Below are positions 4,433-63,810 of a DNA stretch of 64,000 bases, piece by piece; within the stretch, counting starts at the first letter, position 1; each line of letters starts with the position of its first letter. The notes beneath the pieces were generated by a model that was given only the letters and a program-made list of their open reading frames with translations, did no database searches and was not told where the DNA came from. The translations under genes were made by a program, and so were the position numbers. The stretch is from an uncultured Planctomycetia bacterium (GTDB taxonomy: Bacteria; Omnitrophota; Gorgyraeia; Gorgyraeales; Gorgyraeaceae), in assembly GCA_964415355.1 (NCBI GenBank), contig CAYPYS010000002.1:74475-138474 (forward strand), written 5' to 3'.

Positions 4433-4786
4433 TCAGAAAAGTCGTTTTTTTAAGAGTTTTACCCCTATTTCATATGCCGGGTCTTCCGCGTCATCTCTTG
4501 CGGTAAGCTCTTCGAACCACATTACCTTTGCCTTGGATGACAGGGATCCATTGCTATTAGGATCTTCTATTTCCAGTTCAACCGTATGCCCTTTCTGGAT
4601 CTTTTTGTCCACGGGGAACCTTAGGCCATTTCGGGAGATATTTTTTGTTATGCTTTCGCCTCGAGAATCTGACTCGGGATCGAAATATTTTAGCTTCAGC
4701 AGGGCGTCGTATCTCTTCGCGGATCTGCGATCGTCGACAAACCTTTCTTCTCGTTTTGTTTTAAATAACCTTGATGGTATTCTCAT
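4433..4786 (-). CDS. PilZ-domain protein (c-di-GMP receptor)
   Basis: RRSAKR (RxxxR) and NISRNG ([D/N]xSxxG) PilZ motifs. Confidence 0.7.
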   Translation of the reverse strand: MRIPSRLFKTKREERFVDDRRSAKRYDALLKLKYFDPESDSRGESITKNISRNGLRFPVDKKIQKGHTVELEIEDPNSNGSLSSKAKVMWFEELTARDDAEDPAYEIGVKLLKKRLF

Positions 4787-4799
4787 GTTTTACCTTGTT

Positions 4800-4838
4800 C
4801 TAACTTTACACTTTAACGTTGTTGAAATGTAAAGTTAG
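4800..4838. repeat. R1 palindromic element
   Basis: ctaactttacactttaacgttgttgaaatgtaaagttag. Lies between two PilZ genes and contains the stop of 4835-5173. Confidence 0.9.
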
Positions 4839-5173
4839 AGGTTATTGATGAGTCTGCTTATGTAAAGTAGTTGCCTATCCAGGAACTTTATGCCAGCTTC
4901 AAAATGTTCCTCGCTCTCTTTGCTCATAGGCTCATCCCAGATCCAGACTACCTTCCCCCTGCAGCGCGCTTTTATATCCGAGTTATACCTGAATATTTCC
5001 ATATCCAGCGTGGTTCCCGGAGATAGGCTTTTTAAAAGAGACATCCTGACCCCACCCGCGCTGATATTCTTTGTGGTTGTGCAGAATTCCCTATTGCTTC
5101 CAACGGGGCTATACCTTACTGCTAATTCTTTGTCCAGACGTTCGAAGATTCGGCTGTCTGTACTGATACGCAT
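4835..5173 (-). CDS. PilZ-domain protein
   Basis: RIFER (RxxxR) and NISAGG motifs. Stop codon lies inside the R1 repeat. Confidence 0.7.
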   Translation of the reverse strand: MRISTDSRIFERLDKELAVRYSPVGSNREFCTTTKNISAGGVRMSLLKSLSPGTTLDMEIFRYNSDIKARCRGKVVWIWDEPMSKESEEHFEAGIKFLDRQLLYISRLINNL

Positions 5174-6567: not shown

Positions 6568-6606
6568 CTAACTTTACATTTCAACAACGTTAAAGTGTAA
6601 AGTTAG
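6568..6606. repeat. R1 palindromic element
   Basis: ctaactttacatttcaacaacgttaaagtgtaaagttag. Confidence 0.9.
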
Positions 6607-9183: not shown

Positions 9184-9311
9184 ATGCTATAGCCTCCATT
9201 GTCGAATATTGCGGTTTTACTGGGGAATTTTACAGATATGCAAGGTGGATTTCTTCGCGGGGATGGCACGCCTGTACCTGTGCCTAGCAAGGTTATTTCC
9301 ATATTTTCTGT

Positions 9312-9349
9312 TAAGTATACATTTTAACGTTGTTGAAATGTATACTTAG
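9312..9349. repeat. R1v (GTATACA-arm variant) palindromic element
   Basis: taagtatacattttaacgttgttgaaatgtatacttag. Contains the stop of 9346-9825. Confidence 0.85.
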
Positions 9350-9825
9350 TCTTTGACCACCTTTAGCTTGTTTAAATGCGTTAGTAATATGGCTTCTGAT
9401 TCAGGAGCTATCTTTATAAATTTTATCCCTACGTAAAACAGGCGCCTGCCTCGCTCATCCTGAGACTGCATGTCCTTTATCCACATAACCTGTCCTATAA
9501 ACTTCACGGGCTTTGAAAACCCGGGGACCTCTACCTCTAGATCAAGATGTTTCTTTTCATTAAGTTTTTCATAGGTCAGAAGACAGAGTCCTTTTTTTGA
9601 AAGATTTATAGTCTTGGATTCCTGGAAACGGGGCGCTTTGGGCAATAGATTGTATCCGATCTTAAGGTTCTCATCAAACCTGACATACATCCTTCTTTCC
9701 CTCAGCTCCCAGAATTTCCTGGCCAGGCCATGGGTAGTGCTTTTTTTAAGCCTTTTCTCCTCGTTTTTTAGCAGGATCAATATTATACATAAAAATATCA
9801 GTAAGGTTGAATAAAATAAATACAT
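9346..9825 (-). CDS. PilZ-domain protein with an N-terminal TM anchor
   Basis: N-terminal hydrophobic helix, RERRMYVR and INLSKKG motifs. Stop inside the R1v repeat. Confidence 0.65.
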   Translation of the reverse strand: MYLFYSTLLIFLCIILILLKNEEKRLKKSTTHGLARKFWELRERRMYVRFDENLKIGYNLLPKAPRFQESKTINLSKKGLCLLTYEKLNEKKHLDLEVEVPGFSKPVKFIGQVMWIKDMQSQDERGRRLFYVGIKFIKIAPESEAILLTHLNKLKVVKD

Positions 9826-13011: not shown

Positions 13012-13050
13012 CTAAGTTTACACTTTAACGTTGTTGAAATGTAAAGTTAG
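13012..13050. repeat. R1 palindromic element
   Basis: ctaagtttacactttaacgttgttgaaatgtaaagttag. Contains the stop of 13047-13448. Confidence 0.9.
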
Positions 13051-13448
13051 GAGAGTTTTATGTCGACTTCCTTGATCGTTCCAGGATTAGCGCTTCCTGA
13101 TTCTACGTAGGACTCCAGGGCCTTCCTGTCCTTTTCGGAAATGTCCGTAAAGAATATGGCGGTGTTATGGTGCGCCTTGTCAGTGTTTTTCAATATTACG
13201 GGTTCTGTCCTGACCACGACCCCCTTGCACCTTATTTTTTTAGCCTGCTTGGGCCTAGAGCTATTTTTCTGCGGCACCATAAGCACTACTTCTATCTTGG
13301 ACATCAGCGGAAGCAGCCTTGTCACCCTGCAGTATATCCCGCTTGAACTTACATCCACGGTCTCCGTGATTATGTCGAATGCCTTGTCGGCGATCTTGAG
13401 CGGGAGGCTGCCTTTTGCCCTGAGATGTTTTCTGCGCTCTTCTATCAT
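13047..13448 (-). CDS. PilZ-domain protein
   Basis: RRKHLR and VDVSSSG motifs. Stop inside R1. Confidence 0.65.
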   Translation of the reverse strand: MIEERRKHLRAKGSLPLKIADKAFDIITETVDVSSSGIYCRVTRLLPLMSKIEVVLMVPQKNSSRPKQAKKIRCKGVVVRTEPVILKNTDKAHHNTAIFFTDISEKDRKALESYVESGSANPGTIKEVDIKLS

Positions 13449-15448: not shown

Positions 15449-15487
15449 TCAACTTTACATTTCAACAACGTTAAAGTGTAAACTTAG
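15449..15487. repeat. R1 palindromic element
   Basis: tcaactttacatttcaacaacgttaaagtgtaaacttag. Confidence 0.85.
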
Positions 15488-16282: not shown

Positions 16283-16657
16283 TCAAGAAGTTATAGTCTG
16301 TTGCGCTGATTCCCCGAGGATCTTTTTTACTATTACGTCTATCCTTTCCGCGTCATCTTTCTTTAAATTAGTGAATTCTATGCCTGTGTCATATAGTTTA
16401 TTATTTTGCTGTTTTTTCTCTACTATCCACACTATGGCCCCGTCGCATTGAATGGCCGGCTTATTGTCTAATATATCAAGCTGTATCTCAACGGGTGCGA
16501 ATATCCCAAGGTCTTTAGGGAGCACAGTGCATATGCCTCCTATGCCTATGTTCTGTGTTTGCGAAGACAACATGTCTGACCTGTCTTTTCTTCTTACGGT
16601 TATTTTGCACGGGTATTCAGCTCTTGGAAACTTACGCTTGTTGATACCACTCCACAT
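16283..16657 (-). CDS. PilZ-domain protein
   Basis: RKFPR and NIGIGG motifs. Confidence 0.65.
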   Translation of the reverse strand: MWSGINKRKFPRAEYPCKITVRRKDRSDMLSSQTQNIGIGGICTVLPKDLGIFAPVEIQLDILDNKPAIQCDGAIVWIVEKKQQNNKLYDTGIEFTNLKKDDAERIDVIVKKILGESAQQTITS

Positions 16658-16728: not shown

Positions 16729-16767
16729 CTAACTTTACACTTTAACGTTGTTGAAGTGTAAAGTTAA
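16729..16767. repeat. R1 palindromic element
   Basis: ctaactttacactttaacgttgttgaagtgtaaagttaa. Lies in the divergent region between a PilZ gene and ExeA. Confidence 0.9.
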
Positions 16768-20039: not shown

Positions 20040-20650
20040 ATCGTTACACCTAAAAGCGTCGCGAAGTACATTACTAATGGCCAAATAACGCTCCCTATTA
20101 ACCCTATGTAAAGCAGGCCAAATATAATAATGAAACCATAAGGTTCTAATTTTGCGTATCGAATGCCAAGGTCTCTTGGCAGCATTCCCATAAGCACTCT
20201 GGACCCGTCCAAAGGCGGGATCGGCAATATGTTAAATATTGCCAGCACGAGATTTATTATTATAGCCGTGGTAAGGACCTCTGTTAAGAGGATATTTCCT
20301 CCGCTTAAAGTAATAAATTTCAATATAAAAGACAGCAGGATCGCGAAAAATATATTTGCCGTGGGGCCGGCCAGGCCGACCCATACCATATCTTTTTTTG
20401 GGTTTCCCAGGCTATTGAAATCTACAGGCACTGGTTTTGCCCAGCCGAATATAACCGGGGACCGCGTAGCTAGTAGTAAAAGAGGAAGGAATATAGTCCC
20501 TATCGGATCGATATGTGCCAGGGGGTTAAACGTGAGACGGCCCGCGTTTTTAGCTGTCCAGTCCCCTAGTTTCCACGCGGTCCAACCGTGCGCGTATTCA
20601 TGGATTATCACAGCAAAGAAAAAAACGGAAAGGATTAATATAAACTGCAT
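20036..20650 (-). CDS. Site-2 protease family (M50) membrane metalloprotease
   Basis: HEYAHG HExxH in TM1, multi-TM, LDG motif. Confidence 0.75.
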   Translation of the reverse strand: MQFILILSVFFFAVIIHEYAHGWTAWKLGDWTAKNAGRLTFNPLAHIDPIGTIFLPLLLLATRSPVIFGWAKPVPVDFNSLGNPKKDMVWVGLAGPTANIFFAILLSFILKFITLSGGNILLTEVLTTAIIINLVLAIFNILPIPPLDGSRVLMGMLPRDLGIRYAKLEPYGFIIIFGLLYIGLIGSVIWPLVMYFATLLGVTI

Positions 20651-21372
20651 TATTTATTTTTATCAGAAAATATAAGGTTGCCCGTGGAAAGAGCAGGCTT
20701 GGAGACCCTTTCTAATTTTATTCTTTCTGATCCTTTTCTTTTTATCTTGGGCGCAGTCTCTTTTTTTGACACTATCGCAAGGTCTTCTTTTTCTTTTACT
20801 TCCTCTATTGCCGCTGCCGCTATTTCTTCTTTTTTCTCGATTCTGTCGATTTGCACGGTTTTCTCGATCTCGTCTTTTTCAACAAAGCTAAGGGCTATCT
20901 GGCTGGAATGCACCCATCCGCTGGCTCCCTGAGGAGGTTCGATTTTATACCACCCTCCTTCTTCCTCGGATATCACGCGCAGCGACTCAGGCTTTGAGAC
21001 CTGCCCCAGTATGGAATGTTTTGTGCCTGGGCCTGCCCTGAGATTTACTCGTGTCGCGTTGACCTCACCTATCTTTCCTCCCTTTTCACGATCCAGGTCA
21101 ACGTAATCGTTTTTTATGTATACGTGCGCTTTTCTGGGCAGATCGATTTTATACCAGCTGTAACGCTTTCCTGTCAGTTTGACAGGATCGCCCTTTTTTA
21201 ATTTGCACAATACTTCATAATTGATATTATCCCCTGCCCGTACATTAGAGGTGCTATTTTTTATAAAGCCTATCTTGGACAGTTTTTCTTCCGTGTCTGT
21301 GCCTGCGTGGGATGCCCCGCAGAAGAAACAAGAAAGTAGCAATATTAGGACACCTGTCTTTACAAGTCTCAT
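20650..21372 (-). CDS. Secreted protein with tandem bacterial SH3 (SH3b) domains
   Basis: Signal peptide MRLVKTGVLILLLSCFFCGASHA. Two ...VR/LRAG....W(Y/Y)KI SH3b-like segments. The track start at 21414 is an artefact of R2 translation; AAGGAG lies 8 nt upstream of ATG 21372. Confidence 0.6.
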   Translation of the reverse strand: MRLVKTGVLILLLSCFFCGASHAGTDTEEKLSKIGFIKNSTSNVRAGDNINYEVLCKLKKGDPVKLTGKRYSWYKIDLPRKAHVYIKNDYVDLDREKGGKIGEVNATRVNLRAGPGTKHSILGQVSKPESLRVISEEEGGWYKIEPPQGASGWVHSSQIALSFVEKDEIEKTVQIDRIEKKEEIAAAAIEEVKEKEDLAIVSKKETAPKIKRKGSERIKLERVSKPALSTGNLIFSDKNK

Positions 21373-21387
21373 AGTTAACTCCTTCTT

Positions 21388-21413
21388 GGATTCCCGCTTT
21401 CGCGGGAATGACA
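21388..21413. repeat. R2 GC-rich hairpin element (GNRA tetraloop on the minus-strand transcript)
   Basis: ggattcccgctttcgcgggaatgaca, 3 nt upstream of the SD of the SH3b gene. Confidence 0.85.
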
Positions 21414-21430
21414 ATTTTGAAGTATATATT

Positions 21431-21489
21431 CCAACAACGTTAAAGCCTGCCCCGCGTGACTTAAGGAAGTAAAGCGGGGTGTAAAGTTA
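21431..21489. repeat. R1 element interrupted by a 35-bp GC-hairpin insertion (21446-21480)
   Basis: ccaacaacgttaaag + [cctgccccgcgtgacttaaggaagtaaagcggggt] + gtaaagtta. Contains the stop of 21487-21768. Confidence 0.75.
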
Positions 21490-21768
21490 TTTTTTCTTTT
21501 CTTCTTTTTTGTCTGCCTTAGGAGCGGCTTCTTTCGGAGCAGTTGCCTGTGCTTCAGAGCCGGCTGCCTGAGCTTCTTCCGGTTTTTCTTCCGCTTTTTC
21601 CTTCTTGATCTTTGTCCTTACTATTTTCAGCTTTGGCATACCGAAGACGGAATCGTCCTCTTTCAATATGCCTTTTTCTTTTAAGGTAAAGAACTTTTCA
21701 AACCTTTTTAATACGCTCCTGTGTTTTTTTCCTGCCTTTGAAGTTTTCAAACTAGGATGCTGTGACAT
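21487..21768 (-). CDS. Small basic hypothetical protein
   Basis: 93 aa, K/E-rich. Stop inside a disrupted R1 copy. Confidence 0.4.
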   Translation of the reverse strand: MSQHPSLKTSKAGKKHRSVLKRFEKFFTLKEKGILKEDDSVFGMPKLKIVRTKIKKEKAEEKPEEAQAAGSEAQATAPKEAAPKADKKEEKKK

Positions 21769-22578: not shown

Positions 22579-24048
22579 TCAGACTAAATTTTTAAGTCCC
22601 GGTTTCTTTATAATAGAAATAAAGGCATTTACTACATCGGGATCGAATTGCGCCCCTTTGTTTTTTTCTATTTCTTTCAAGGCCTGCGATATGGTTATAT
22701 TGCCATCTTTGTAAGGCCTGGAAGAGACCATTGCCTCAAAGGCATCGGCAACAGCCATTATCCTTGCGCCCAAGGGTATTTCCTCTCCTTTTAGGCCTTT
22801 TGGGTATCCTGAGCCATCGTATCTTTCATGATGATGCATTATTATCGGTAAGGAGGGCTTTAAGAATTCAAGGGGTTTTAATATCTTGATGCTTTCGAGA
22901 TGTTGTCGTTTTATGATTTTATATTCTTCTCGCGATAGACGGCCGCGTTTTTTTAATATTTCGTCGGGTATGCTGAATTTTCCAGTATCAGGCAGGAGCG
23001 CAGCGTATCGCAAGTTCCTGGTCTCTTCTCTTGGGAGTCTCATCTCCTCGGCTATAGCAAGGACTATTTTGACAAAAGCCTCAGAGTGAGTGTATGTATT
23101 TGGCGATTTTGCATCTAAAAGCGCCGCGAGCGATTTAATGCTGCCGTATGCCATCTTGTCCTGCTCCTCGTATAGCTGGGCATTCTTTATGGCTATCACT
23201 GCCTGTTCAGCAAGTGTCAGAAGGATTTCCATGTCAAATTTAGTAAAAGGCGTATTTTTTATCTTATTTTTAGCGCATATGATACCTACTACATCTTCCT
23301 CCACGAGGGGAACGCATACTGTATTCCGCGACATAAAGGTCTTCCCTGTCTTTGCCACCTTTCCTTCCATGCCAGTGCCTACTTTTATCTTTTTGAGCCT
23401 CGCATCTTTTTTGTTGGCGTGGTTTCTTAGATCAGTGGCTGCCCTTGTAACGAGGTTTTTCCCTGAATCATCGAGAAGCATTATGGAGCAGTACCTGGCC
23501 CGCATTACCTGAGAGGTCAATCGCGCGATCCTTTCTATTAATTCAGTCAAATCGAGAGTAGAGCTTATAAGCCTGTGTATGGTGTGGATCGTAGATAAGG
23601 CGATCGCTCTTGGTCTGATGGTATCGTATAATTTGACAAGCTCCTGTTCTTTTTGAAATTCTTTTAAAGCCACATCTATGATCGATTTAAACAGGATCAC
23701 GTCTTTTTTGTTTAAGTCAAAGTTCAAGTGCAGTATTGCCACGTATCCGTATAGATTTTCGCTTTGCATTATCGGCAGGAAGACGCAGGTCTTGCCGCAA
23801 GAGCATTGTAAGGGTCGCACCTTGTCCAGGCGTTGCGACTTAAGTTTTTTTAGAGACCTTGTGATCCCCGCGCAGCCCTTTTTATTTTTACCGATAGGCT
23901 TAAGGTTTGAATCAAAGAACAGGCACCGCACGCGCTTTTTTATGATTTCTGAAATAGCGCCTTTAAGCAATAAAATGGAGGCTGATCTACTGAACTCCAG
24001 CAAGAATCGGTGTTTTTCGTTGTTGTTAGACTTTTTCATAGGGGTCAA
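22579..24048 (-). CDS. GAF-domain + HD-GYP c-di-GMP phosphodiesterase
   Basis: HHHERYDGSGYP HD-GYP signature. Upstream GAF-like region. Confidence 0.75.
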   Translation of the reverse strand: MTPMKKSNNNEKHRFLLEFSRSASILLLKGAISEIIKKRVRCLFFDSNLKPIGKNKKGCAGITRSLKKLKSQRLDKVRPLQCSCGKTCVFLPIMQSENLYGYVAILHLNFDLNKKDVILFKSIIDVALKEFQKEQELVKLYDTIRPRAIALSTIHTIHRLISSTLDLTELIERIARLTSQVMRARYCSIMLLDDSGKNLVTRAATDLRNHANKKDARLKKIKVGTGMEGKVAKTGKTFMSRNTVCVPLVEEDVVGIICAKNKIKNTPFTKFDMEILLTLAEQAVIAIKNAQLYEEQDKMAYGSIKSLAALLDAKSPNTYTHSEAFVKIVLAIAEEMRLPREETRNLRYAALLPDTGKFSIPDEILKKRGRLSREEYKIIKRQHLESIKILKPLEFLKPSLPIIMHHHERYDGSGYPKGLKGEEIPLGARIMAVADAFEAMVSSRPYKDGNITISQALKEIEKNKGAQFDPDVVNAFISIIKKPGLKNLV

Positions 24049-25180
24049 ATAATTTTTTATATTCGTCTAGGGCATATCTATCTGTCATGCCCGCTATGTA
24101 GTCGCATATCGCTCTATGAGAGCCGTATTTTTCAATATTTTTCTGATCAGAAGGCGGAAGCTGCTCAGGTTTTTCAAGGTAGACATTAAAAAGATCTATT
24201 ATGAACCTTCTGGCCTTGTCAGACATGCGGCTAACCCTGAAATTTTTATATAGATTTTCCATTAGGAACCGACGCAGCTGCATTCTTTTTTCTTGCATGC
24301 CGCTGGAAAAGACGATCAATCTATCCTGATCCTTTCTTACGTCTTTCACGTTCTTTATGCGAGACGCTTTTATCTTTTTTTCAGATGTCTCGACCAGGTC
24401 CTTTATCTGCCTGTCTATCAATATCCTTATTATCTGGTACTTTCGTATCTTGCCGTCCAGGTTACTACGCCGTTTTTTTACGCTGGAAACCGCCATTTTC
24501 CAAAGATCTAGTTTTGATAACTCTTTTTCGTCTATAAGTCCCGATGTCAATCCGTCGTCGATATCATGATTATCGTATGCTATTTCGTCAGAGATGTCAA
24601 CCACCTGCGTCTCCAGGGTGGGTGATGTTTCCGGTTCGAGCTCTATAAATCTTTCTGACTTGTCAAACATAGTGGTGTGCTTGTTTACCCCTTCCCTTAC
24701 TTCCCAGGTCAGGTTTAAGCCTGGAAAATCAGGGTATCTTCGCTCTAATTCGTCTATGACCCTCAGGCCTTGCAGATTATGGTCAAAACCTCCCCTGTCT
24801 TTCATCAGCGCCCCTAGGGCATCTTCACCAGCGTGGCCGAATGGCGGGTGGCCGATATCGTGAGAGAGGGCAATGGCTTCGACAAGATCCTCGTTTAGCA
24901 TCAGTTCCCTGGCGATTGATTTTGCCAGCTGACTGACCTCCAATGTGTGAGTAAGCCTTGTTCTGTAATAGTCTCCTTCATGATTTACGAAGACCTGCGT
25001 TTTGTATTCTAGCTTTCTAAAGGCCGTACAGTGTATGATCCTGTCCCTGTCTCTTTGATAGTGAGACCTATGCCTTGGTTCTTTTTCAGGGTATTTTCTT
25101 CCCCTCGTATCCATGCTTAACATCGCATAAGGGGCCAGAAATTTTTTTTCCCTGTTTTCTATATCTTTTCGTGTAAGCAT
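24026..25180 (-). CDS. dgt: dGTP triphosphohydrolase (Dgt-like HD-domain dNTPase)
   Basis: HD motif LSHDIGHPPFGH, Dgt-like length. Start reassigned to MLTRKDIENR (ATG 25180). The track N-terminus MSFPRKRES is R2-derived. Confidence 0.8.
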   Translation of the reverse strand: MLTRKDIENREKKFLAPYAMLSMDTRGRKYPEKEPRHRSHYQRDRDRIIHCTAFRKLEYKTQVFVNHEGDYYRTRLTHTLEVSQLAKSIARELMLNEDLVEAIALSHDIGHPPFGHAGEDALGALMKDRGGFDHNLQGLRVIDELERRYPDFPGLNLTWEVREGVNKHTTMFDKSERFIELEPETSPTLETQVVDISDEIAYDNHDIDDGLTSGLIDEKELSKLDLWKMAVSSVKKRRSNLDGKIRKYQIIRILIDRQIKDLVETSEKKIKASRIKNVKDVRKDQDRLIVFSSGMQEKRMQLRRFLMENLYKNFRVSRMSDKARRFIIDLFNVYLEKPEQLPPSDQKNIEKYGSHRAICDYIAGMTDRYALDEYKKLFDPYEKV

Positions 25181-25189
25181 CGGAAATCT

Positions 25190-25215
25190 GGATTCCCGCT
25201 TTCGCGGGAATGACA
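25190..25215. repeat. R2 hairpin element
   Basis: ggattcccgctttcgcgggaatgaca, in the dgt 5' leader. Confidence 0.85.
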
Positions 25216-25219
25216 CATG

Positions 25220-25258
25220 TTAACTTTACACTTTAACGTTGTTGAAGTGTAAAGTTAG
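25220..25258. repeat. R1 palindromic element (adjacent to R2)
   Basis: ttaactttacactttaacgttgttgaagtgtaaagttag. Contains the stop of the HIT gene. Confidence 0.9.
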
Positions 25259-25716
25259 GTAAGCAGTTTGCGTAATTCTTTTAGCGATTGCGGCACGACT
25301 TTCGTCTGTCCTATGACAGGCATAAAGTTCGTGTCGCCAGACCACCTGGGAACGATATGTATATGGACATGCCCTCTGTAGCCGGCTCCGCCTACCTTAC
25401 CCGTGTTTATACCTATGTTAAAGCCATGTGGTTTTAATTTTTTTTCAAGCAGGCGCTGCATTTCTTTTACCAAAACCATCATATCCAGAAGCTCGTTGTC
25501 TCTCAATCCTGTCAGGTCTTTTATGTGCCTGTAGGGCGAGACCATCACATGACCATTATTATATGGGTATATGTTCAATATGGCAAACGAGAATTTAGAT
25601 TTTTTGATGATATATCCATGGCTGTCTCTCTTATTTTTCTTGATACAGAATATGCAGCCTTTGTTTTTCTTTTTCTTTACAAATTTACTTCTCCATGGTG
25701 CCCACAATCTGTCCAT
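25255..25716 (-). CDS. HIT-family (histidine triad) nucleotide hydrolase
   Basis: HVHIHIVPR triad. Stop inside R1. Confidence 0.8.
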   Translation of the reverse strand: MDRLWAPWRSKFVKKKKNKGCIFCIKKNKRDSHGYIIKKSKFSFAILNIYPYNNGHVMVSPYRHIKDLTGLRDNELLDMMVLVKEMQRLLEKKLKPHGFNIGINTGKVGGAGYRGHVHIHIVPRWSGDTNFMPVIGQTKVVPQSLKELRKLLT

Positions 25717-31450: not shown

Positions 31451-31489
31451 CCTAAGTTTACACTTTAACGTTGTTGAAATGTAAAGTTA
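31451..31489. repeat. R1 palindromic element
   Basis: ctaagtttacactttaacgttgttgaaatgtaaagttaa. Confidence 0.9.
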
Positions 31490-32537: not shown

Positions 32538-32576
32538 TACCCGCTTTCTAACTTTACACTTTAACGTTGTTGAAAT
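32538..32576. repeat. R1 palindromic element
   Basis: ctaactttacactttaacgttgttgaaatgtaaagttag. Confidence 0.9.
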
Positions 32577-32588
32577 GTAAAGTTAGGA

Positions 32589-38171: not shown

Positions 38172-38210
38172 ATAACTTTACATTTCAACAACGTTAAAGT
38201 GTAAAGTTAG
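38172..38210. repeat. R1 palindromic element
   Basis: ataactttacatttcaacaacgttaaagtgtaaagttag. Contains the stop of the Trm112-like ORF. Confidence 0.9.
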
Positions 38211-40127: not shown

Positions 40128-42761
40128 TTACCGCACTCCCTCTAATGCTACCATTGTGCAGTTTTCGAGAGCCAGCATGTCTTTCGCCACTCTTTTTATG
40201 TCTTCTTTTGTGACAGCGTCTATGTTTTTGTAATAATCCTCGTAATTATTATAGCCTAAACCGTATAACTCATCCATTGTTATCGTGAATATGAAGCTTA
40301 AGTTAGTCTGCATGGAAATCTGACGCATTGCTTTCAGGTGGTTCTTGGACATTAGCAGTTCTTCGTCTGTCACGCCCTTTTTAATGAAGGATCTTATTTC
40401 CTTGAATATTATATCTTCTACTTTGCCTAGGTTTTCTTTTGAGGTGAGGACGTATATAGCGATATAGCCCGGGTCTATGCCTAATACCTGAAAGGCCCCC
40501 TGCGCATAAGAAAGACCGCTCTCTCCTCTTATCTTTTCAAATAAAATCCCGGATTCACTGGAAAAAATATCTATCAAGACGTCGACTGTGTACCGGTTTT
40601 TGTCGTAAATATCGATGCCGTGAAAACCCAGCATTAATAAGGACTGTTCTTTTTTTACTCCTACATTTTTCTCTCTTCGTTTTTCTATTGCAGGTTCTTC
40701 TATCGGAACAGGGGAAGCCATTTCTCTCGAGCCTATATTTGAAAAATATTTTTCTGCCAGCGCTTCTACCATGTCAGTATCGCAGTCTCCCGCGACTCCC
40801 AGTGCCATATTCTCCGGGGATAGCATGTTCGCATGGAACGCGACCGCGTCTTTTCTCTCGAGGCCATCAATGCTTTCGCGCGTCCCTATCGCCAGAAGTC
40901 CATAGGGATGCTTTGTAAAAAGCAGATCTTTTAATAACCTGTGTCCGTGATTGAATATTTTATTGTCTTGCATTTCTATAGCAGACAGTATCTCTTTTTT
41001 TTCTCTCTTTAGTTCGTTTTCCGAAAAAACAGGATTTAGGCATAGGTCCGATAAAAGCTTTAGTCCGTCTTCAAGATGTTCGCTTAGACAGTTCACCGTG
41101 AGGCCCAGGCTGTTGTTTCCGGAATAAGTATCGACTGTCATGCCTTTGGATTCATAAAGCTCCGCGATTTCTTCTCTTGACATATCCTTTGAACCGTCCA
41201 ATAGCATAAGACTGGTCAATTGCGAAATGCCGTTATTTTTTTCATCTTCGAACCTGACACCGCCTTTAAACAAAAGAGAAATAGACGCTATCGGGAGAGA
41301 GTGATTTTCCGATATAAGGACGCTTAGTTTGTTTCCAAGGGTTATCTTTTTTACTGAGCGCTCTTGTTTTTTATCAAGAGACGCGCGCGAAACAGGACTC
41401 AGGGATTTGCCTGTCCGGCTTATCACCGTGACTGTCATATTGTCTCTATTTAGATATTTGCTTGCCACATATTGCACTTCATCCAGGGCCACTGATTTTA
41501 TCCGCTCTATATAAAGCTCGAAGAACTCTGGATTGCCGGCCAGGAGTTGCCCTATTGCCCTGTCATTTGCTTTTGACTCAATAGTTTCTTTTGAGTATGT
41601 GTATCCAGCGATAAAATTATTTTTCGCCTTAGACAAGTCTTTATCTGTCATGCCATTTTCTTTGACAAGTTCGATATGATGCAATATTTTTTCAATAGCC
41701 GCCGCGACATTTTCTTCCCTCAATACGCTTGATACAATAAAAAGTCCCGGATCTTTAGGCGTATAGTTATAGGCTGATATGGATAAGACCAGTTCATCTT
41801 TTATGCGCAGCTCTTCATTCAGGATAGAACTTTCTCCCTGTCCTAGAATAAAAGACAGAAGATCGAGCGCATACAGATCTTTGTTTAAAAGCTCAGAAGA
41901 GTGAAAAGATATATTCAGGTAAGCCCCCTCTATGCCGTCTATTTTTTCTTCAATAAAACGACTTCCTGACTGAGGTGGTTCTGTGACTGTAGCGGATGAA
42001 ATGGCACCCCCGCGGCCTAATTCCCCGAAAGCGTTTTTTATGTCCTTAAACATGGAATTTGCATCTATGTCCCCCACCACAGCTATTACGATCTTTTCTG
42101 GAACATAGTTGTTTTCAAAAAATGCCACGAGGTCTTTTCTTTCTAATTTTTTGAATTTTTCTTTATAGCCTATAATCGGTATCAGATACGGGTGTCTGGT
42201 ATAAGCGTTTGAAAATGTAAGCCTGGAGATCTTTCGACCAGGATTGTCTTTGCTTAAATCCATCTCCCTTTCTATTACCTGTTTTTCTTTCTTGATCTCC
42301 TCTGCGTCGAATGCAGGATTGCTTAACATTTCTTTTAATATATCCAATCCTATGTGCGCGTGTTCTTTTAGAATGGTTATCCTGAAACCGGTGTAGTCGT
42401 ACGAAGTAAACCCGTCTATATTGCCGCCATATTTATGCAATATATCTTCTATGGCGCCGGGTGGGTATTTTTGCGTGCCCTTGAAAAGGATGTGTTCTAT
42501 CAGGTGACTGATACCGCTTCCGAGATATTCTCCTTCGTAGGCAGAACCGACGTCTATAAAAGCAGAAAAGACCACTATGGGGTTCCTGTGGTCTTCCTCG
42601 ACTATTACTTTAAGGCCGTTATCCAGCGTCCTGACTTCTTGGGCTTTTAGCTCAATTGCCAGAAAAGAGCCAAAAATAAAAAAAGCCAAGACATATATAA
42701 AGGTAAATTTTATGATCTTGGGCATTTGATTTAATGTTATTTGCCCCGCGCGTTGCAACAT
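40128..42761 (-). CDS. Secreted tandem M16 (pitrilysin/insulinase-family) zinc peptidase
   Basis: HxxEH in SHLIEHILFKGT. 877 aa with two M16 modules. A GC hairpin overlaps codons 1-12, so the true start may be MPKIIKF at 42725. Confidence 0.75.
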   Translation of the reverse strand: MLQRAGQITLNQMPKIIKFTFIYVLAFFIFGSFLAIELKAQEVRTLDNGLKVIVEEDHRNPIVVFSAFIDVGSAYEGEYLGSGISHLIEHILFKGTQKYPPGAIEDILHKYGGNIDGFTSYDYTGFRITILKEHAHIGLDILKEMLSNPAFDAEEIKKEKQVIEREMDLSKDNPGRKISRLTFSNAYTRHPYLIPIIGYKEKFKKLERKDLVAFFENNYVPEKIVIAVVGDIDANSMFKDIKNAFGELGRGGAISSATVTEPPQSGSRFIEEKIDGIEGAYLNISFHSSELLNKDLYALDLLSFILGQGESSILNEELRIKDELVLSISAYNYTPKDPGLFIVSSVLREENVAAAIEKILHHIELVKENGMTDKDLSKAKNNFIAGYTYSKETIESKANDRAIGQLLAGNPEFFELYIERIKSVALDEVQYVASKYLNRDNMTVTVISRTGKSLSPVSRASLDKKQERSVKKITLGNKLSVLISENHSLPIASISLLFKGGVRFEDEKNNGISQLTSLMLLDGSKDMSREEIAELYESKGMTVDTYSGNNSLGLTVNCLSEHLEDGLKLLSDLCLNPVFSENELKREKKEILSAIEMQDNKIFNHGHRLLKDLLFTKHPYGLLAIGTRESIDGLERKDAVAFHANMLSPENMALGVAGDCDTDMVEALAEKYFSNIGSREMASPVPIEEPAIEKRREKNVGVKKEQSLLMLGFHGIDIYDKNRYTVDVLIDIFSSESGILFEKIRGESGLSYAQGAFQVLGIDPGYIAIYVLTSKENLGKVEDIIFKEIRSFIKKGVTDEELLMSKNHLKAMRQISMQTNLSFIFTITMDELYGLGYNNYEDYYKNIDAVTKEDIKRVAKDMLALENCTMVALEGVR

Positions 42762-42795
42762 ATGATAGAATGCGCGGGGTTCTTAATATTTTAAG

Positions 42796-43046: not shown

Positions 43047-43085
43047 CTAACTTTACATTTCAACAACGTTAAAGTGTAAAGTTAG
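43047..43085. repeat. R1 palindromic element
   Basis: ctaactttacatttcaacaacgttaaagtgtaaagttag. Confidence 0.9.
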
Positions 43086-45513: not shown

Positions 45514-45552
45514 CTAACTTTACATTTCAACAACGTTAAAGTGTAAAGTTAG
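45514..45552. repeat. R1 palindromic element
   Basis: ctaactttacatttcaacaacgttaaagtgtaaagttag. Contains the stop of the yjbQ-like gene. Confidence 0.9.
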
Positions 45553-45986: not shown

Positions 45987-46023
45987 TAAGTATACATTTT
46001 AACAATGTTGAAATGTATACTTA
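45987..46023. repeat. R1v variant palindromic element
   Basis: taagtatacattttaacaatgttgaaatgtatactta. Confidence 0.85.
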
Positions 46024-48525: not shown

Positions 48526-48564
48526 CTAACTTTACACTTTAACGTTGTTGAAATGTAAAGTTAG
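48526..48564. repeat. R1 palindromic element (intra-operonic, between RACo and cooC)
   Basis: ctaactttacactttaacgttgttgaaatgtaaagttag. Contains the RACo stop. Confidence 0.9.
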
Positions 48565-50531
48565 AGGAGTTTTTTTACAGACGGGAATGCTTCTATGTCT
48601 GTGTGCGGTAAAAACAGGGCCGCACTGTAATTATTCATAAAATGTGGATTTGTGCTCAGATCGAGATATGTCATTTTATCCGCTATGAGGTTTGCCTTTT
48701 TCATCGCCTCGCTTGATAAGACACACATCTTTGCTCCTGTCACAGAGGTATTGCCCAAAAATTCGAATTTTTTCTCAGGCAGATCCGGCAGAAGCCCGAT
48801 ATTTATAGCTGACCTGATGTTTAAGGCCGCGCCCAGGCCGCCGGCGATGAATACATGCTTTAAATCCGATTTTTTGAAGCCGGATTCTTTTAACAACACC
48901 TCGATGCCGGTATAAATAGCGCCCTTAGAATGGATCACATTTTTAATATCATTCTCATCGATCGTTATATCTTTGCCCGTGGCCGATTTCTTTTTATCTA
49001 CGAGTACGATCTTTTTTATGCCGTCAGCATCTATTACTTTAAAAATTTTATTTTCTTTTATTTTCCCTGAACGGTCTATGACTTTATTTTCCATAAATAC
49101 GCTCAACGCGTCTATTATGCCTGAGCCGCATATGCCTTTCGGAGGCTTATTGCCTATAGTCCTTATGGCAAGCTTATTATTTTTTACAGAGACACCTTGT
49201 ATGGCCCCGGCCATCGCCCTTATACCTGAGCTCAGGCCTCCTCCTTCGAAGCATGGCCCTGCAGAAGTCGAACAGGTGACGTAGTAGTCTTTATTGCCCA
49301 AGACCACTTCACCATTTGTCCCCATATCTATGAAGAGAGAGATATCTTTTGAATTATCCATGCCTGAAGCCAGTACTCCTCCGACAATATCGCTTCCGAC
49401 ATAGCTCCCGACGCAAGGGAGGCAGGATAACAGCCCCCTCGGGTTTATTTTTATCCCGGCCTCTGCTGCTCTTATAACCGGCATAAAATTTACAGCAGGG
49501 ATATAGGGTTCTTTTCTTATGTATCCCGGGTCTATTTTTAGAAGAAGGTGCATCATCGTGGTGTTGCCGGCACACATGACTGCCGTAATATCGTCCAGGG
49601 TCAGGTCCTGTTCTTTCGAGAGACTGTATATAAGGACATTTATCGTATCTATGACGACATGATGAAGTTTCTCCAGCCCGCTTTCTTTCTCTGCGTATAC
49701 GATCCTCGATATGATGTCCTCTCCAAAGTCTACCTGCGGGTTGTAGCTCGCCCTGGCGCCAAGCACTTTTTGTGATTTTAGATTTACAAGATACGCGACA
49801 ATGGTGGTTGTCCCTATATCCAGCGCTATGCCGAAGTTTTTGGCAGACCTATTGCCCGGCTCTATCAAAACGATTTCCGTTGTATTGTTCCTGCTCCCAA
49901 GCGTTGCTGTGATCTGCCAATCGCTTTCTCTTAAAAGGTGGGGTAGTTTTTTTATATTGGCCAATCCCATCTGCATAACAGGGATATCCCCGTTCTTTCT
50001 TATCTCTCTGAAGAGCCTTTCCATGTCGCTGCAGTTATCGTCTATCGAAGGCGGCGAGAGATTCAGGAATAATTTTGTAGACAGAGGCCCGTGCTTGAAT
50101 ATCTTTGTTTCTGCCCCCAGGTGCTCTTCTTCTATTTTTTCCGCAGGGGTGTAGAGCCCTGCAAGCCTCTTTGCCTTTGCTTCTTCTGTCAAGACCTCTA
50201 TGTCTCCCAGTCTGGACTCCTCCGGCACGAGGACAGTCATGTCAGACTCAGGCGTGGTCCTGCAGGCCAAAACATAGCCTTTTTTGCGTTCTTTTTCAGA
50301 AATCCTTCCGCTGTGCTCGGTTATGAATTTGCCTTTTTTAATAATAACCTTGCATCTGCCGCAGACCCCTTCTCCCCCACAGCTATTATATATATGTATG
50401 CCAGATTTAATAGCAGCGGTCAGGAGGTCTGTGCCTTTATCTACAGAAACAGTCCTCTTTTCAGGCAAAAATGTTACGACAACGTTTTCCATAATAGACT
50501 TAATTTTAACATGGCAGGCTATAAGGGTCAA
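48561..50531 (-). CDS. Reductive activator of corrinoid Fe-S protein (RACo-like): N-terminal 2Fe-2S ferredoxin + ASKHA ATPase domain
   Basis: CGGEGVCGRCKV plant-type ferredoxin motif. ~620 aa ASKHA-like C-domain. The start may be M14 (ATG 50492) instead of TTG 50531. Confidence 0.55.
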   Translation of the reverse strand: MTLIACHVKIKSIMENVVVTFLPEKRTVSVDKGTDLLTAAIKSGIHIYNSCGGEGVCGRCKVIIKKGKFITEHSGRISEKERKKGYVLACRTTPESDMTVLVPEESRLGDIEVLTEEAKAKRLAGLYTPAEKIEEEHLGAETKIFKHGPLSTKLFLNLSPPSIDDNCSDMERLFREIRKNGDIPVMQMGLANIKKLPHLLRESDWQITATLGSRNNTTEIVLIEPGNRSAKNFGIALDIGTTTIVAYLVNLKSQKVLGARASYNPQVDFGEDIISRIVYAEKESGLEKLHHVVIDTINVLIYSLSKEQDLTLDDITAVMCAGNTTMMHLLLKIDPGYIRKEPYIPAVNFMPVIRAAEAGIKINPRGLLSCLPCVGSYVGSDIVGGVLASGMDNSKDISLFIDMGTNGEVVLGNKDYYVTCSTSAGPCFEGGGLSSGIRAMAGAIQGVSVKNNKLAIRTIGNKPPKGICGSGIIDALSVFMENKVIDRSGKIKENKIFKVIDADGIKKIVLVDKKKSATGKDITIDENDIKNVIHSKGAIYTGIEVLLKESGFKKSDLKHVFIAGGLGAALNIRSAINIGLLPDLPEKKFEFLGNTSVTGAKMCVLSSEAMKKANLIADKMTYLDLSTNPHFMNNYSAALFLPHTDIEAFPSVKKLL

Positions 50532-50533
50532 GC

Positions 50534-50546
50534 CTAACTTTACACA
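50534..50546. repeat. R1 left-arm fragment
   Basis: ctaactttacaca, followed directly by an inverted R2. Confidence 0.6.
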
Positions 50547-50553
50547 CTAATAG

Positions 50554-50578
50554 TGTCATTCCCGCAAAAGCGGGAATC
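50554..50578. repeat. R2 hairpin element, inverted orientation, AAAA loop
   Basis: tgtcattcccgcaaaagcgggaatc. Confidence 0.8.
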
Positions 50579-50597
50579 TATAAAATACTCAATCCAT

Positions 50598-50623
50598 GGA
50601 TCCCCGTTTTCACGGGGATGACA
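50598..50623. repeat. R2 hairpin element, divergent copy
   Basis: ggatccccgttttcacggggatgaca (arms co-varied: CCCCG/CGGGG). Confidence 0.75.
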
Positions 50624-50661
50624 TAGAGAAAAACCCTGTCGAGATGGGTCTCAACAGGGTT
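50622..50661 (-). terminator. Intrinsic terminator for the lipoprotein gene
   Basis: Minus-strand stem AACCCTG...CAGGGTT followed by UUUUUCUCU, 30 nt downstream of the stop at 50691. Confidence 0.55.
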
Positions 50662-50690
50662 TATGGGCGATGGACAAATGCCTTGAAAAA

Positions 50691-51594: not shown

Positions 51595-51633
51595 TTAACT
51601 TTACATTTCAACAACGTTGAAGTGTAAAGTTAG
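51595..51633. repeat. R1 palindromic element
   Basis: ttaactttacatttcaacaacgttgaagtgtaaagttag. Contains the lepA stop. Confidence 0.9.
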
Positions 51634-53431: not shown

Positions 53432-53470
53432 CTAACTTTACATTTTAACGTTGTTGAAATGTAAAGTTAG
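53432..53470. repeat. R1 palindromic element
   Basis: ctaactttacattttaacgttgttgaaatgtaaagttag. Contains the phosphohexomutase stop. Confidence 0.9.
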
Positions 53471-54892: not shown

Positions 54893-54932
54893 CTTAAGTT
54901 TACATTTCAACAACGTTAAAGTGTAAACTTAA
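54893..54932. repeat. R1 palindromic element with a compensated G/C arm swap
   Basis: cttaagtttacatttcaacaacgttaaagtgtaaacttaa. Contains the rpe stop. Confidence 0.85.
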
Positions 54933-55625: not shown

Positions 55626-55651
55626 GGATTCCCGCGTTCGCGGGAATGACA
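55626..55651. repeat. R2 hairpin element
   Basis: ggattcccgcgttcgcgggaatgaca, directly upstream of the rpe SD (AGGAGA). Confidence 0.85.
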
Positions 55652-58392: not shown

Positions 58393-58431
58393 CTAACTTT
58401 ACACTTTAACGTTGTTGAAATGTAAAGTTAG
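58393..58431. repeat. R1 palindromic element
   Basis: ctaactttacactttaacgttgttgaaatgtaaagttag. Contains the trpA stop. Confidence 0.9.
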
Positions 58432-59224: not shown

Positions 59225-59263
59225 CTAACTTTACATTTCAACAACGTTAAAGTGTAAAGTTAG
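59225..59263. repeat. R1 palindromic element (between trpB and trpA)
   Basis: ctaactttacatttcaacaacgttaaagtgtaaagttag. Contains the trpB stop. Confidence 0.9.
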
Positions 59264-60504: not shown

Positions 60505-60542
60505 TAAGTATACATTTCAACATTGTTGAAATGTATACTTAA
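60505..60542. repeat. R1v variant palindromic element
   Basis: taagtatacatttcaacattgttgaaatgtatacttaa. Confidence 0.85.
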
Positions 60543-63125: not shown

Positions 63126-63151
63126 GGATTCTCGCTTTCGCGGGGATGACA
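63126..63151. repeat. R2 hairpin element, divergent copy
   Basis: ggattctcgctttcgcggggatgaca, directly upstream of the plsY SD. Confidence 0.75.
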
Positions 63152-63155
63152 GCGC

Positions 63156-63196
63156 CTTAAGTATACATTTTAACATTGTTGAAATGTATACTTAAG
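63156..63196. repeat. R1v variant palindromic element (adjacent to R2)
   Basis: cttaagtatacattttaacattgttgaaatgtatacttaag. Confidence 0.85.
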
Positions 63197-63771: not shown

Positions 63772-63810
63772 CTAACTTTACACTTTAACATTGTTGAAAT
63801 GTAAAGTTAG
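63772..63810. repeat. R1 palindromic element
   Basis: ctaactttacactttaacattgttgaaatgtaaagttag. Contains the stop of the partial terminal CDS. Confidence 0.9.

Follow-up and report, generated by a model that had tools for sequence, protein, structure and literature searches.

Small hairpin repeats side by side and nested in the intergenic gaps of a compact Omnitrophota genome

The genome of an uncultured Omnitrophota bacterium carries, within a 64-kb stretch of contig CAYPYS010000002.1 that was analysed as a whole (hereafter, the window), a 114-bp gap (21373-21486) between a 93-aa gene and an SH3-domain gene. A first-pass annotation had described there a copy of one small repeat, R2, followed by a copy of a palindromic repeat, R1, interrupted by a 35-bp GC hairpin, and had listed three further loci at which R1 and R2 lie together; all four arrangements (at 21388, 25190, 50534 and 63126) are present. 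Read on the minus strand, the gap at 21373-21486 holds a TAA stop codon that forms part of an R1 arm, the GC hairpin, half of an R1 core joined to an arm like those of the R1v subfamily, the tetranucleotide AATT, R2, a ribosome-binding site (RBS) and an ATG.

The R2 copy occupies 21388-21412 on the minus strand (GGATTCCCGCTTTCGCGGGAATGAC on the plus strand, GTCATTCCCGCGAAAGCGGGAATCC on the minus strand), immediately upstream of the SH3-domain gene's RBS, and has an 8-bp stem, a GAAA loop and an exact match to ATTCCC-N8-GGGAAT. Four nucleotides (AATT on the minus strand) separate it from the R1v-like half-element at 21417-21445, which consists of the arm TTGAAGTATATAT and the core half TCCAACAACGTTAAAG, a core match with 4 mismatches; on the minus strand the same segment reads as the core half and then the arm, TTTAACGTTGTTGG AATATATACTTCAA. 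This arm has the GTATATAT variant, as does a half-R1v at the orthologous site (L071) of a sister species, CAYULJ01. The 35-bp hairpin, or guest, follows at 21446-21480 (its end falls at 21479 or 21480). It has a stem of CCCCGC and GCGGGG (6 bp plus a G.T pair) and an 18-nt loop that itself contains a 4-bp stem, and its minus-strand tail, before the R1 core, is CAGGC. Last comes an R1-type arm at 21480-21489 (TGTAAAGTTA on the plus strand, TAACTTTACA on the minus strand), whose last three bases, 21487-21489, are the minus-strand TAA stop of the 93-aa gene (21487-21768). A sister lineage, L076, has an identical TAACTTTACA arm at the stop codon.

The guest does lie between arms of the R1 family, as the annotation had proposed, but these are not the two arms of one palindrome. 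The arm on its left is R1v-type and the arm on its right R1-type, and only 6 of their 10 positions pair. Folded as RNA or as DNA, the sequence forms the guest and R2 hairpins and no outer R1 helix; by contrast, loci with an intact R1 and R2 fold with z-scores of about -6. Because the flanking arms differ in subfamily, pair so poorly and form no helix, the locus is not a single intact R1 with an insert. An intrinsic terminator, a G+C-rich stem with a T-run, was also considered for the guest, which is followed instead by CAGGCTTTAAC, and a permissive Rfam search of the locus returned nothing with an E value below 0.6.

Such short repeats may lead a metagenome assembler to join sequences wrongly, and the arrangement might in principle be such an artefact or a chance juxtaposition. 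We give this almost no credence, since a 140-bp region with the same flanking genes is 100% identical in ten independent metagenome contigs (JGI and ENA) that carry the same 93-aa protein, and the repeats are far more numerous than shuffled sequences would predict. The structure is thus real. The same ten assemblies of the population show no polymorphism in the gap, and so neither the within-population variation that the annotation had suggested looking for nor any other sign of current activity is seen there.

The R1 palindrome spans 41 bp, with 3 nt at its centre and a stem of 19 bp. A strict pattern matches it 19 times in the window, against 0.00 expected from shuffles, and a looser core pattern finds 24 intact copies, with 796 of their 888 bases intergenic. 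Among 132 copies, the outer nine pairs are Watson-Crick in 73-98% (the inner seven of these in 95-98%), and six outer positions show at least two pair types, one of them with T-A in 101 copies, C-G in 22, G-C in 5 and A-T in 2. Bases just outside the palindrome pair at 20-29%. Conservation of the central 23 bases is not counted as evidence here because the search pattern fixes them. Each genome has its own dominant arm dialect together with minority subfamilies with matching arms.

Among the matches listed in a scan of one genome per species, the R1 core occurs in Candidatus Omnitrophota assemblies and in one armless, chance match in Streptococcus. At least six Omnitrophota assemblies have R1, namely CAYULJ01 (with many copies), UBA10183 and CG1_02_40_15 (both low in copy number), JABMRN01, JABMSB01 and CAJVXN01, and a second scan recovered 51 contigs of the species JACKQG01 with the same R1 arm sequence as the window. 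The core was not found in the viral contigs searched, nor was a description of R1 found in the searchable literature, queried for the R1 sequence and for Omnitrophota repeats. R1 is apparently an undescribed palindrome family that is REP-like (repetitive extragenic palindromic) with unusual features.

In 91 of 101 cases the genes on either side of R1 are co-directional, and its usual place is between a stop codon and the next RBS. For 13 of the 24 window copies and 38 of 99 copies in CAYULJ01, the upstream gene ends at the TAA of the R1 arm; as the arm begins with TAA, R1 can replace a stop codon harmlessly. The orientation of its centre relative to transcription is moderately biased (59 of 91), and on the sense strand G.U does not outnumber A.C. 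A role as an intrinsic terminator does not fit a stem that is A+T-rich and lacks a T-run or U-tract after it. A DNA-uptake sequence is ruled out because half-sites almost never stand alone: the window holds three exact solo arms (1384, 21480 and 50535), all remnants of disrupted R1 copies and two of them intergenic. The genes tested with R1 at their flanks are housekeeping genes, with no candidate mobilising gene among them. Each of four small PilZ-domain genes in the window directly adjoins an R1 (regions 4433-5173, 13047-13448 and 16283-16657). The centre itself is AACGTT in most window and JACKQG01 copies and AACATT or AATGTT in nearly all CAYULJ01 copies, orthologous ones included (for example, 13014 and 58395), a difference that points to either concerted evolution or a shared CpG (AACGTT) mutational hotspot. 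A repeat that fills about a third of the non-coding DNA and gives about half of the upstream genes their stop codon matters for the assembly of metagenome-assembled genomes (MAGs) and for studies of operon expression in this phylum.

R2, on the evidence of its sequence, is an already known element: a Ssn-related motif (SRM) of the type represented by the Neisseria Transformation Sequence (NTS) and dRS3. The 2025 report of the Ssn system gives dRS3 as a 20-bp repeat, ATTCCC-N8-GGGAAT (PMC11893778), and the NTS consensus as CGTCATTCCCGCGMAVGCGGGAATCYRG (PMC11893778, Nat Commun 2025). R2 at 21388 agrees with this consensus at 26 of 28 positions, and the copy at 25188-25215 differs from it at 1 of 28. 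The exact dRS3 formula has four matches in the window, and four of the six R2 copies satisfy the SRM expression HGTCWYN(0-2)YYVSBRHN(0-5)WNVSBRGN(0-2)RNCYNB. Five R2 matches were counted against 0.27 expected, a number reached in none of 100 dinucleotide shuffles. RNA and DNA models both fold the hairpin, whose perfect 8-bp stem closes a loop of 4 nt, and constant non-palindromic flanks (5' GTCAT and 3' C) give each copy an orientation.

According to that report, SsnA is a 94-aa GIY-YIG nuclease that binds the hairpin solely as single-stranded DNA (ssDNA), Ssn nucleases cut a few nucleotides 5' of the hairpin, their homologues are GIY-YIG proteins of about 95 aa (cd10448) with genes typically flanked by SRMs, and NTS clusters around important genes in Neisseria (PMC11893778). 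In the protein database, the family of GIY-YIG proteins of ~95 aa counts more than 8,000 relatives. One metagenomic locus has such a gene amid nine SRMs, and the exact R2 sequence adjoins a 95-aa GIY-YIG gene in a Kiritimatiellae MAG (JAQUMN01). At that same locus (L081, 1488-1540), an SRM hairpin beside the gene has a second GC hairpin nested in its loop (GGATTCCCGATCAGTCCCCGCTTTGCGGGGACATGTCGGGAATGACA), so nesting of one hairpin in another occurs in the SRM family outside Omnitrophota as well. The 28-mer of R2 is also present in Neisseria, Azospirillum, Legionella, sphingomonads and others, and the copies in N. gonorrhoeae are mostly convergent (+/-) doublets, like the window pair at 50555 and 50598; no ssnA-type gene was found in 40 kb of unannotated N. 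gonorrhoeae sequence.

R2 thus shares with the Ssn/SRM system its palindrome, oriented flanks, hairpin, above-chance abundance, convergent doublets and clustering with other repeats. It differs in its host, as Omnitrophota is not among the taxa named in PMC11893778, in its modest density of about 1 per 10 kb, and in its consistent 5'-side adjacency to another palindrome family (below), a feature not mentioned in the accessible text of that paper. Ssn-related hairpins occur here in an uncultured phylum with compact genomes, with consistent placement relative to another repeat. In CAYULJ01 (L066, 3499-4782), pilin-like genes of a type IV pilus locus, with PilB, PilC and PilM as neighbours, lie between two R2 copies that each adjoin an R1.

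R2 also affects gene calling. It translates as 'MSFPRKRES...' and extends open reading frames upstream of their true starts (21373-21414 and 25181-25216, minus strand), a likely source of spurious N termini in automatic annotation: the TTG- or GTG-initiated frames 20650-21414 and 24026-25216 begin inside R2, and the real starts, at 21372 and 25180, each lie behind an RBS. R1 matters for gene calling as well, since spurious 'SFPRKRES' N termini and shifted stops both occur in the window.

How often these repeats meet has to be judged against the space available to them. The window, at 42.8% G+C, has ~83 tightly packed genes, nearly all on the minus strand; coding sequence takes up 96%, and 2,539 of 63,537 bases (4.0%) are intergenic. 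R1 covers 796 of those 2,539 bases (31%, a minimum share) and is present as an intact copy in 23 of the 32 gaps of at least 20 bp (72%). R2 occurs in five gaps of the window, four of which also hold an R1 or a remnant of one, which equals the chance expectation; because so many usable gaps already contain an intact R1, the sharing of a gap by R1 and R2 was rejected as a signal. Co-occurrence and nesting therefore need no mechanism that targets hairpins: where R1 fills so much of the intergenic DNA, a guest that lands in tolerated DNA will often land in an R1. For repeat analysis in general this is a caution, since in a genome that is 96% coding, adjacent or nested repeats are the default outcome and are not by themselves evidence of targeting. 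An Rfam covariance-model search of the window adds no further structured element, with one tRNA alone reaching its gathering score.

The annotation had also proposed searching for the 35-bp insert as a third repeat family. No such family emerged. The window has no second copy of the 35-mer with up to 3 mismatches allowed, and none is present in ~0.5 Mb of relatives or in 97 kb of the species with the same R1 dialect (JACKQG01). A 24-mer scan of a metagenome collection without this population gave 0 matches and did not recover the known locus itself. The window's only other CCCCGC-type hairpin (42744-42779) runs across the beginning of a coding region and seems to be a chance occurrence.

Guests of other kinds are nevertheless recurrent in R1 copies of the sister species. 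A scan of CAYULJ01 for R1 arms that are not followed by a normal core found ~19 composite loci among ~137. Seven copies form a subfamily, R1x, whose 20-nt guest, TACCACTTCGTGGCACAGGC, immediately follows the ACA of the arm. The window guest starts at the same R1 position, directly after ACA, and its 3' tail, GGGGCAGGC and then TTT, is near-identical to that of the R1x guest, GTGGCACAGGC and then TTT; in a longer form, the window guest ends in GCGGGGCAGGC before the TTT. This short similarity suggests that the window guest is of the same kind as the R1x guest, with a different stem and a longer loop. R1x copies are oriented 5 sense to 2 antisense, which is not significant. Further composites in CAYULJ01 contain R3c, a hairpin family with at least 8 copies in ~0.37 Mb, 4 of which take the place of an R1 arm; R4 (at least 3 copies); one insert of ~175 bp in the centre of an R1; and several single-copy guests. 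Chimeric arms, from two R1 subfamilies, flank the guest in at least three other composites (L058, L049 and L061), and guests are located in the inner stem of R1, not at the loop tip. The R3c and R4 guests and those at L049 and L107 have a common terminal motif, TAGGG(G)AC...GTC(C)CCTA (seen across L014, L018, L029, L049, L058, L071 and L107), which may be a common recognition sequence. R3c has an A-run on one side and a T-run on the other, as a bidirectional terminator would.

Comparison of the window with orthologous regions of CAYULJ01, which are 78-86% identical in DNA sequence, reveals both stability and turnover. The R1 copies at 13014 (with compensatory changes in the arms) and 58395 are in the same place, and the R1v copies at 60510 and 63160 are present with arms of a different subfamily (AAGTTT), the latter with its centre in the opposite orientation. 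Other copies differ. The R1v at ~9308 is absent from L037 of CAYULJ01 through a clean 38-bp indel (~9308-9345) exactly at the stop codon, a presence or absence polymorphism of the type seen for miniature inverted-repeat transposable elements (MITEs), and the R2 at 63126 is absent too. In place of the R1 copies at 15451 and 16731, L037 has a ~310-bp MITE; the R1 at 16731 is kept in the JACKQG01 species. That MITE has terminal inverted repeats of ~25 bp (CCAYGCYAGAGGTTTA...), and at one of its two sites the first 7 bases of the R1 arm remain. At the site of the R1 at 63774, CAYULJ01 has an R4-family hairpin beside a remnant of the R1 right arm, and there (L016, 4905-4932) a (GTA)8 microsatellite stands in place of the left arm of the R4-family palindrome. 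As for a target-site duplication, the ends of R1 (TA, TTAA or CTTAAG) are palindromic, which makes direct and inverted repeats indistinguishable, and the single pair of filled and empty sites (L037) is blurred by substitutions.

The 21388 gap itself varies from lineage to lineage. Two distant lineages, L078 and L079, in which the neighbouring SH3 protein is 50% identical, have an intact R1-like hairpin starting from the stop codon and nothing else. Of the sister lineages, L071 (CAYULJ01) has half an R1v and then a hairpin with a 21-bp stem (R3c), L076 has the same TAACTTTACA arm as the window and then a different hairpin, and L073 has an unrelated hairpin and no R1. Neither R2 nor the 35-bp hairpin is in the gap in any of these five. 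An R1-type hairpin was therefore ancestral at this site, and each lineage has remodelled it in its own way. The annotation's suggestion that relatives be compared for polymorphism was thus borne out between species, with a different guest in each of the three sister lineages and losses or gains at 63126 and ~9308.

The three other flagged loci share some of this architecture. At 25190-25257, an R2 on the minus strand (25190-25214), which matches the SRM expression, lies beside an intact R1, and the two together give an RNA fold with z = -6.1. At 63126-63196, an R2 variant on the minus strand (63126-63150; GTCATCCCCGCGAAAGCGAGAATCC) lies beside an intact R1v. The spacer had been put at 4 nt for both pairs; the adjacency is as described and the spacer is 5 nt in each. 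The arrangement at 50534-50622 agrees with the earlier description of a truncated R1 arm and two opposed R2 copies: a solo R1 left arm of 12 nt (50534-50545; CTAACTTTACAC), missing the remainder of the palindrome, is followed after 9 nt by the 5' side of a plus-strand R2 (50555-50578) and then by a minus-strand R2 variant (50598-50622), which complete a convergent SRM doublet. The small gene next to the doublet was considered as a nuclease and rejected, as it encodes a glycine-zipper/zinc-ribbon protein. A separate, genuine terminator-like hairpin lies at 50633-50666, and adjoining the solo arm on the minus strand (50520-50550) a near-consensus sigma-70-type promoter, TTGACC-N17-TAAAAT, can be recognized by eye upstream of a RACo-like gene (48561-50531). 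The sixth R2 copy, a solitary SRM on the minus strand at 55626-55650, lies between a stop codon and the next RBS in a gap that has no R1.

One aspect of R2 placement offers a lead rather than a result. In 9 of 12 copies from the window and CAYULJ01, the distance from the 5' GTCAT side of R2 to an R1 end is 3-12 nt, and the 3' side faces an R1 in 1. Among R1-adjacent copies, 9 of 10 obey this 5'-facing rule (two-sided binomial p = 0.02), in a small sample of loci that were picked for having an R1, a choice that does not bias which side of R2 faces it. The spacers are all different, the geometry is independent of gene direction (7 R2 copies are sense and 5 antisense), and two further cases in JACKQG01 agree with it. 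The pattern is worth pursuing because Ssn cuts on the 5' side of R2. It is conceivable, although we regard it as quite improbable, that Ssn-type and other guest hairpins are mobilised as ssDNA and joined preferentially near or inside an extruded palindrome, for which R1 would serve as a landing pad. If so, the constant geometry, with 3-12 nt between the R1 end and the R2 5' side, would be the footprint of the joining reaction. This would give a first clue to how SRM/NTS repeats multiply and would identify a hairpin-targeted mode of insertion for non-coding elements. The spread of these repeats is posed as an open question in the 2025 Ssn paper (PMC11893778), and the R2 geometry in Omnitrophota is a testable lead towards it.

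Taken together, we consider it somewhat probable that small hairpin repeats of three kinds have built up as a mosaic at 21388, one of the few non-coding gaps of a compact genome, and that recombination with a composite copy is a likelier origin of the guest than a fresh insertion. R1 would be a REP-like family, or one like the REP doublets forming hairpins (REPINs), that is specific to Omnitrophota, partly inherited in place over the long term and partly gained and lost. R2 would spread or persist through an Ssn-type enzyme encoded elsewhere in the genome. The 35-bp hairpin would be a guest at the junction of R1 arm and core, of the same type as the R1x guest of the sister species, and would have arrived when a resident R1v-type hairpin recombined, or underwent gene conversion, with an R1x-like composite elsewhere in the genome by way of the R1 core that both share. 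Exchange between R1 members is favoured over simple insertion because the flanking arms are chimeric, the R1v-type arm is shared with CAYULJ01 and there is no outer helix; new hairpins end up beside or inside resident ones because almost every tolerated landing place has an R1. The analysis shows what the elements are, how many copies they have, their covariation, the differences between orthologues and the limited space; the dependence of R2 on Ssn in this genome, the history of recombination and any role of the hairpins as RNA are inferred. Several observations weigh against the mosaic interpretation. The likeness between the window guest and the R1x guest comprises ~9-12 bases with one 2-nt indel, and no R1x-like donor with the window's guest was found in the 64 kb of this genome or in the metagenome collection, which lacks this population. 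Guests of different families inside R1 (roughly 8 of 13) are somewhat above the intergenic share of R1, and the 9 of 10 bias of R2 is one non-random geometry that lack of space leaves unexplained, so that some real targeting is possible. Finally, no GIY-YIG, IS200-like or RAYT-like gene (REP-associated tyrosine transposase) was found by phmmer and motif scans in the window or in the ~0.5 Mb of relatives' fragments, a weak test that used two GIY-YIG queries and one IS200 query on incomplete genomes.

The first-pass annotation had instead proposed an active or recently active miniature-element insertion mechanism that targets hairpins. Such a mechanism would insert palindromes into or next to other hairpins, for example through ssDNA at extruded hairpins, and the 35-bp hairpin would be a third mobile family. 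Real repeat families, species-level turnover and recurrent guests are indeed all present. Many independent loci have a guest within R1 or directly against it, with varied junctions and spacers, some guests belong to multi-copy families (R3c and R4), the 21388 gap differs in every sister lineage, the Ssn-cut side of R2 tends to face R1, and an SRM in an unrelated Kiritimatiellae MAG has another hairpin nested in its loop. Activity at present and the need for targeting are the parts that find no support. Ten assemblies of the population are identical, the 35-bp insert has no second copy in the sequences searched and is flanked by arms of two subfamilies, guests are placed in the inner stem and not at the loop tip, the searches described above turned up no transposase or nuclease gene, and an R1 in 72% of usable gaps makes nesting expected anyway. 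We think this explanation unlikely. A further possibility, to which we assign a rather low probability, is that the hairpins are functional intercistronic RNA or DNA structures (for 3'-end protection, processing or protein binding) under selection, in which case the similarity among copies would reflect co-evolution with a trans factor and the GC hairpin would be a lineage-specific replacement that brings back a stable stem-loop. Such a role would fit the R1-like hairpin whose start coincides with the stop codon of the same gene even where the neighbouring protein is only 50% identical, the pairing that orthologous copies keep through compensatory changes, the constant placement from stop codon to RBS, the moderate bias in centre orientation, and the strong hairpin of some kind that fills the 21388 gap of every lineage, even those without R1. 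It fits poorly with clean presence or absence indels between sister species, several discrete arm subfamilies in one genome, multi-copy composite units such as R1x, a sense strand without preference for G.U over A.C, and R2 copies in both orientations; moreover, no Rfam family matches and no terminator-like U-tract follows R1.

The closest known analogues of the 21388 mosaic are the bacterial interspersed mosaic elements (BIMEs) of E. coli and the neisserial intergenic mosaic elements (NIMEs), in which different small repeats are likewise juxtaposed in one gap in recurring orders; in NIMEs, moreover, dRS3-type hairpins flank other repeat units. The differences are that R1 is unrelated to the palindromic unit (PU)/REP or to RS, that the gaps here are intercistronic and tiny, and that guests also lie inside R1. 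Like REP/REPIN-RAYT systems, R1 is short, palindromic, intergenic and high-copy, with a genome-specific master and variants, partly vertical inheritance and a large share of the intergenic DNA, but it is a single near-perfect 41-bp palindrome, not a doublet of imperfect palindromes, and its core is conserved across genera and overlaps stop codons. The REP elements of RAYT systems have a GTAG-type tetranucleotide conserved at their 5' end, whereas R1, with ends of C-T-(T/A)-A-A, shows no conserved motif of that kind. Mobile DNA that lands in REP hairpins has precedents in IS1397/ISKpn1 and the IS110/IS621 family. Those are full insertion sequences with a transposase and defined target positions, whereas the guests here are non-coding hairpins of 20-60 bp with variable junctions. 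R1 also resembles MITEs with TA or TTAA targets, such as Correia, in being small, non-coding and polymorphic, in having inverted ends that start with TA or TTAA, and in lending signals to genes; unlike them, it is just 41 bp, is palindromic throughout and has no known parent insertion sequence.

The copies of R1 are spread throughout the window. Intact copies that give the upstream gene its stop codon lie at 4801-4837 (gene 4835-5173), 13013-13049, 25220-25257 (through a terminal TTA, for the HIT-domain gene 25255-25716), 45515-45551, 48527-48563, 51596-51632, 53433-53469, 54895-54931 (with AAGTTT/AAACTT arms), 58394-58430 and 59226-59262, as do the R1v copies at 9310-9348 (gene 9346-9825), 45987-46023 and 60505-60541. 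Further intact copies are at 2332-2368, 6569-6605, 15450-15486, 16730-16766 (in a divergent promoter region), 31453-31489, 32549-32585, 38173-38209, 43048-43084 and 63773-63809, with an R1v at 63156-63196 (arms CTTAAGTAT and ATACTTAAG). A partial R1 at 1364-1393 consists of the core and right arm; its left arm is replaced by sequence ending in GGCGGG, and the upstream gene stops at a TAA inside the core. Next to the R1v at 9310, on the minus strand (9184-9310), a non-coding block of ~125 nt between two genes contains a decayed R2-like stretch (GGATTTCTTCGCGGGGATGGCA) and has no Rfam match. It is ~90% conserved in L037, far above neighbouring intergenic DNA, and could be a leader or a small RNA.

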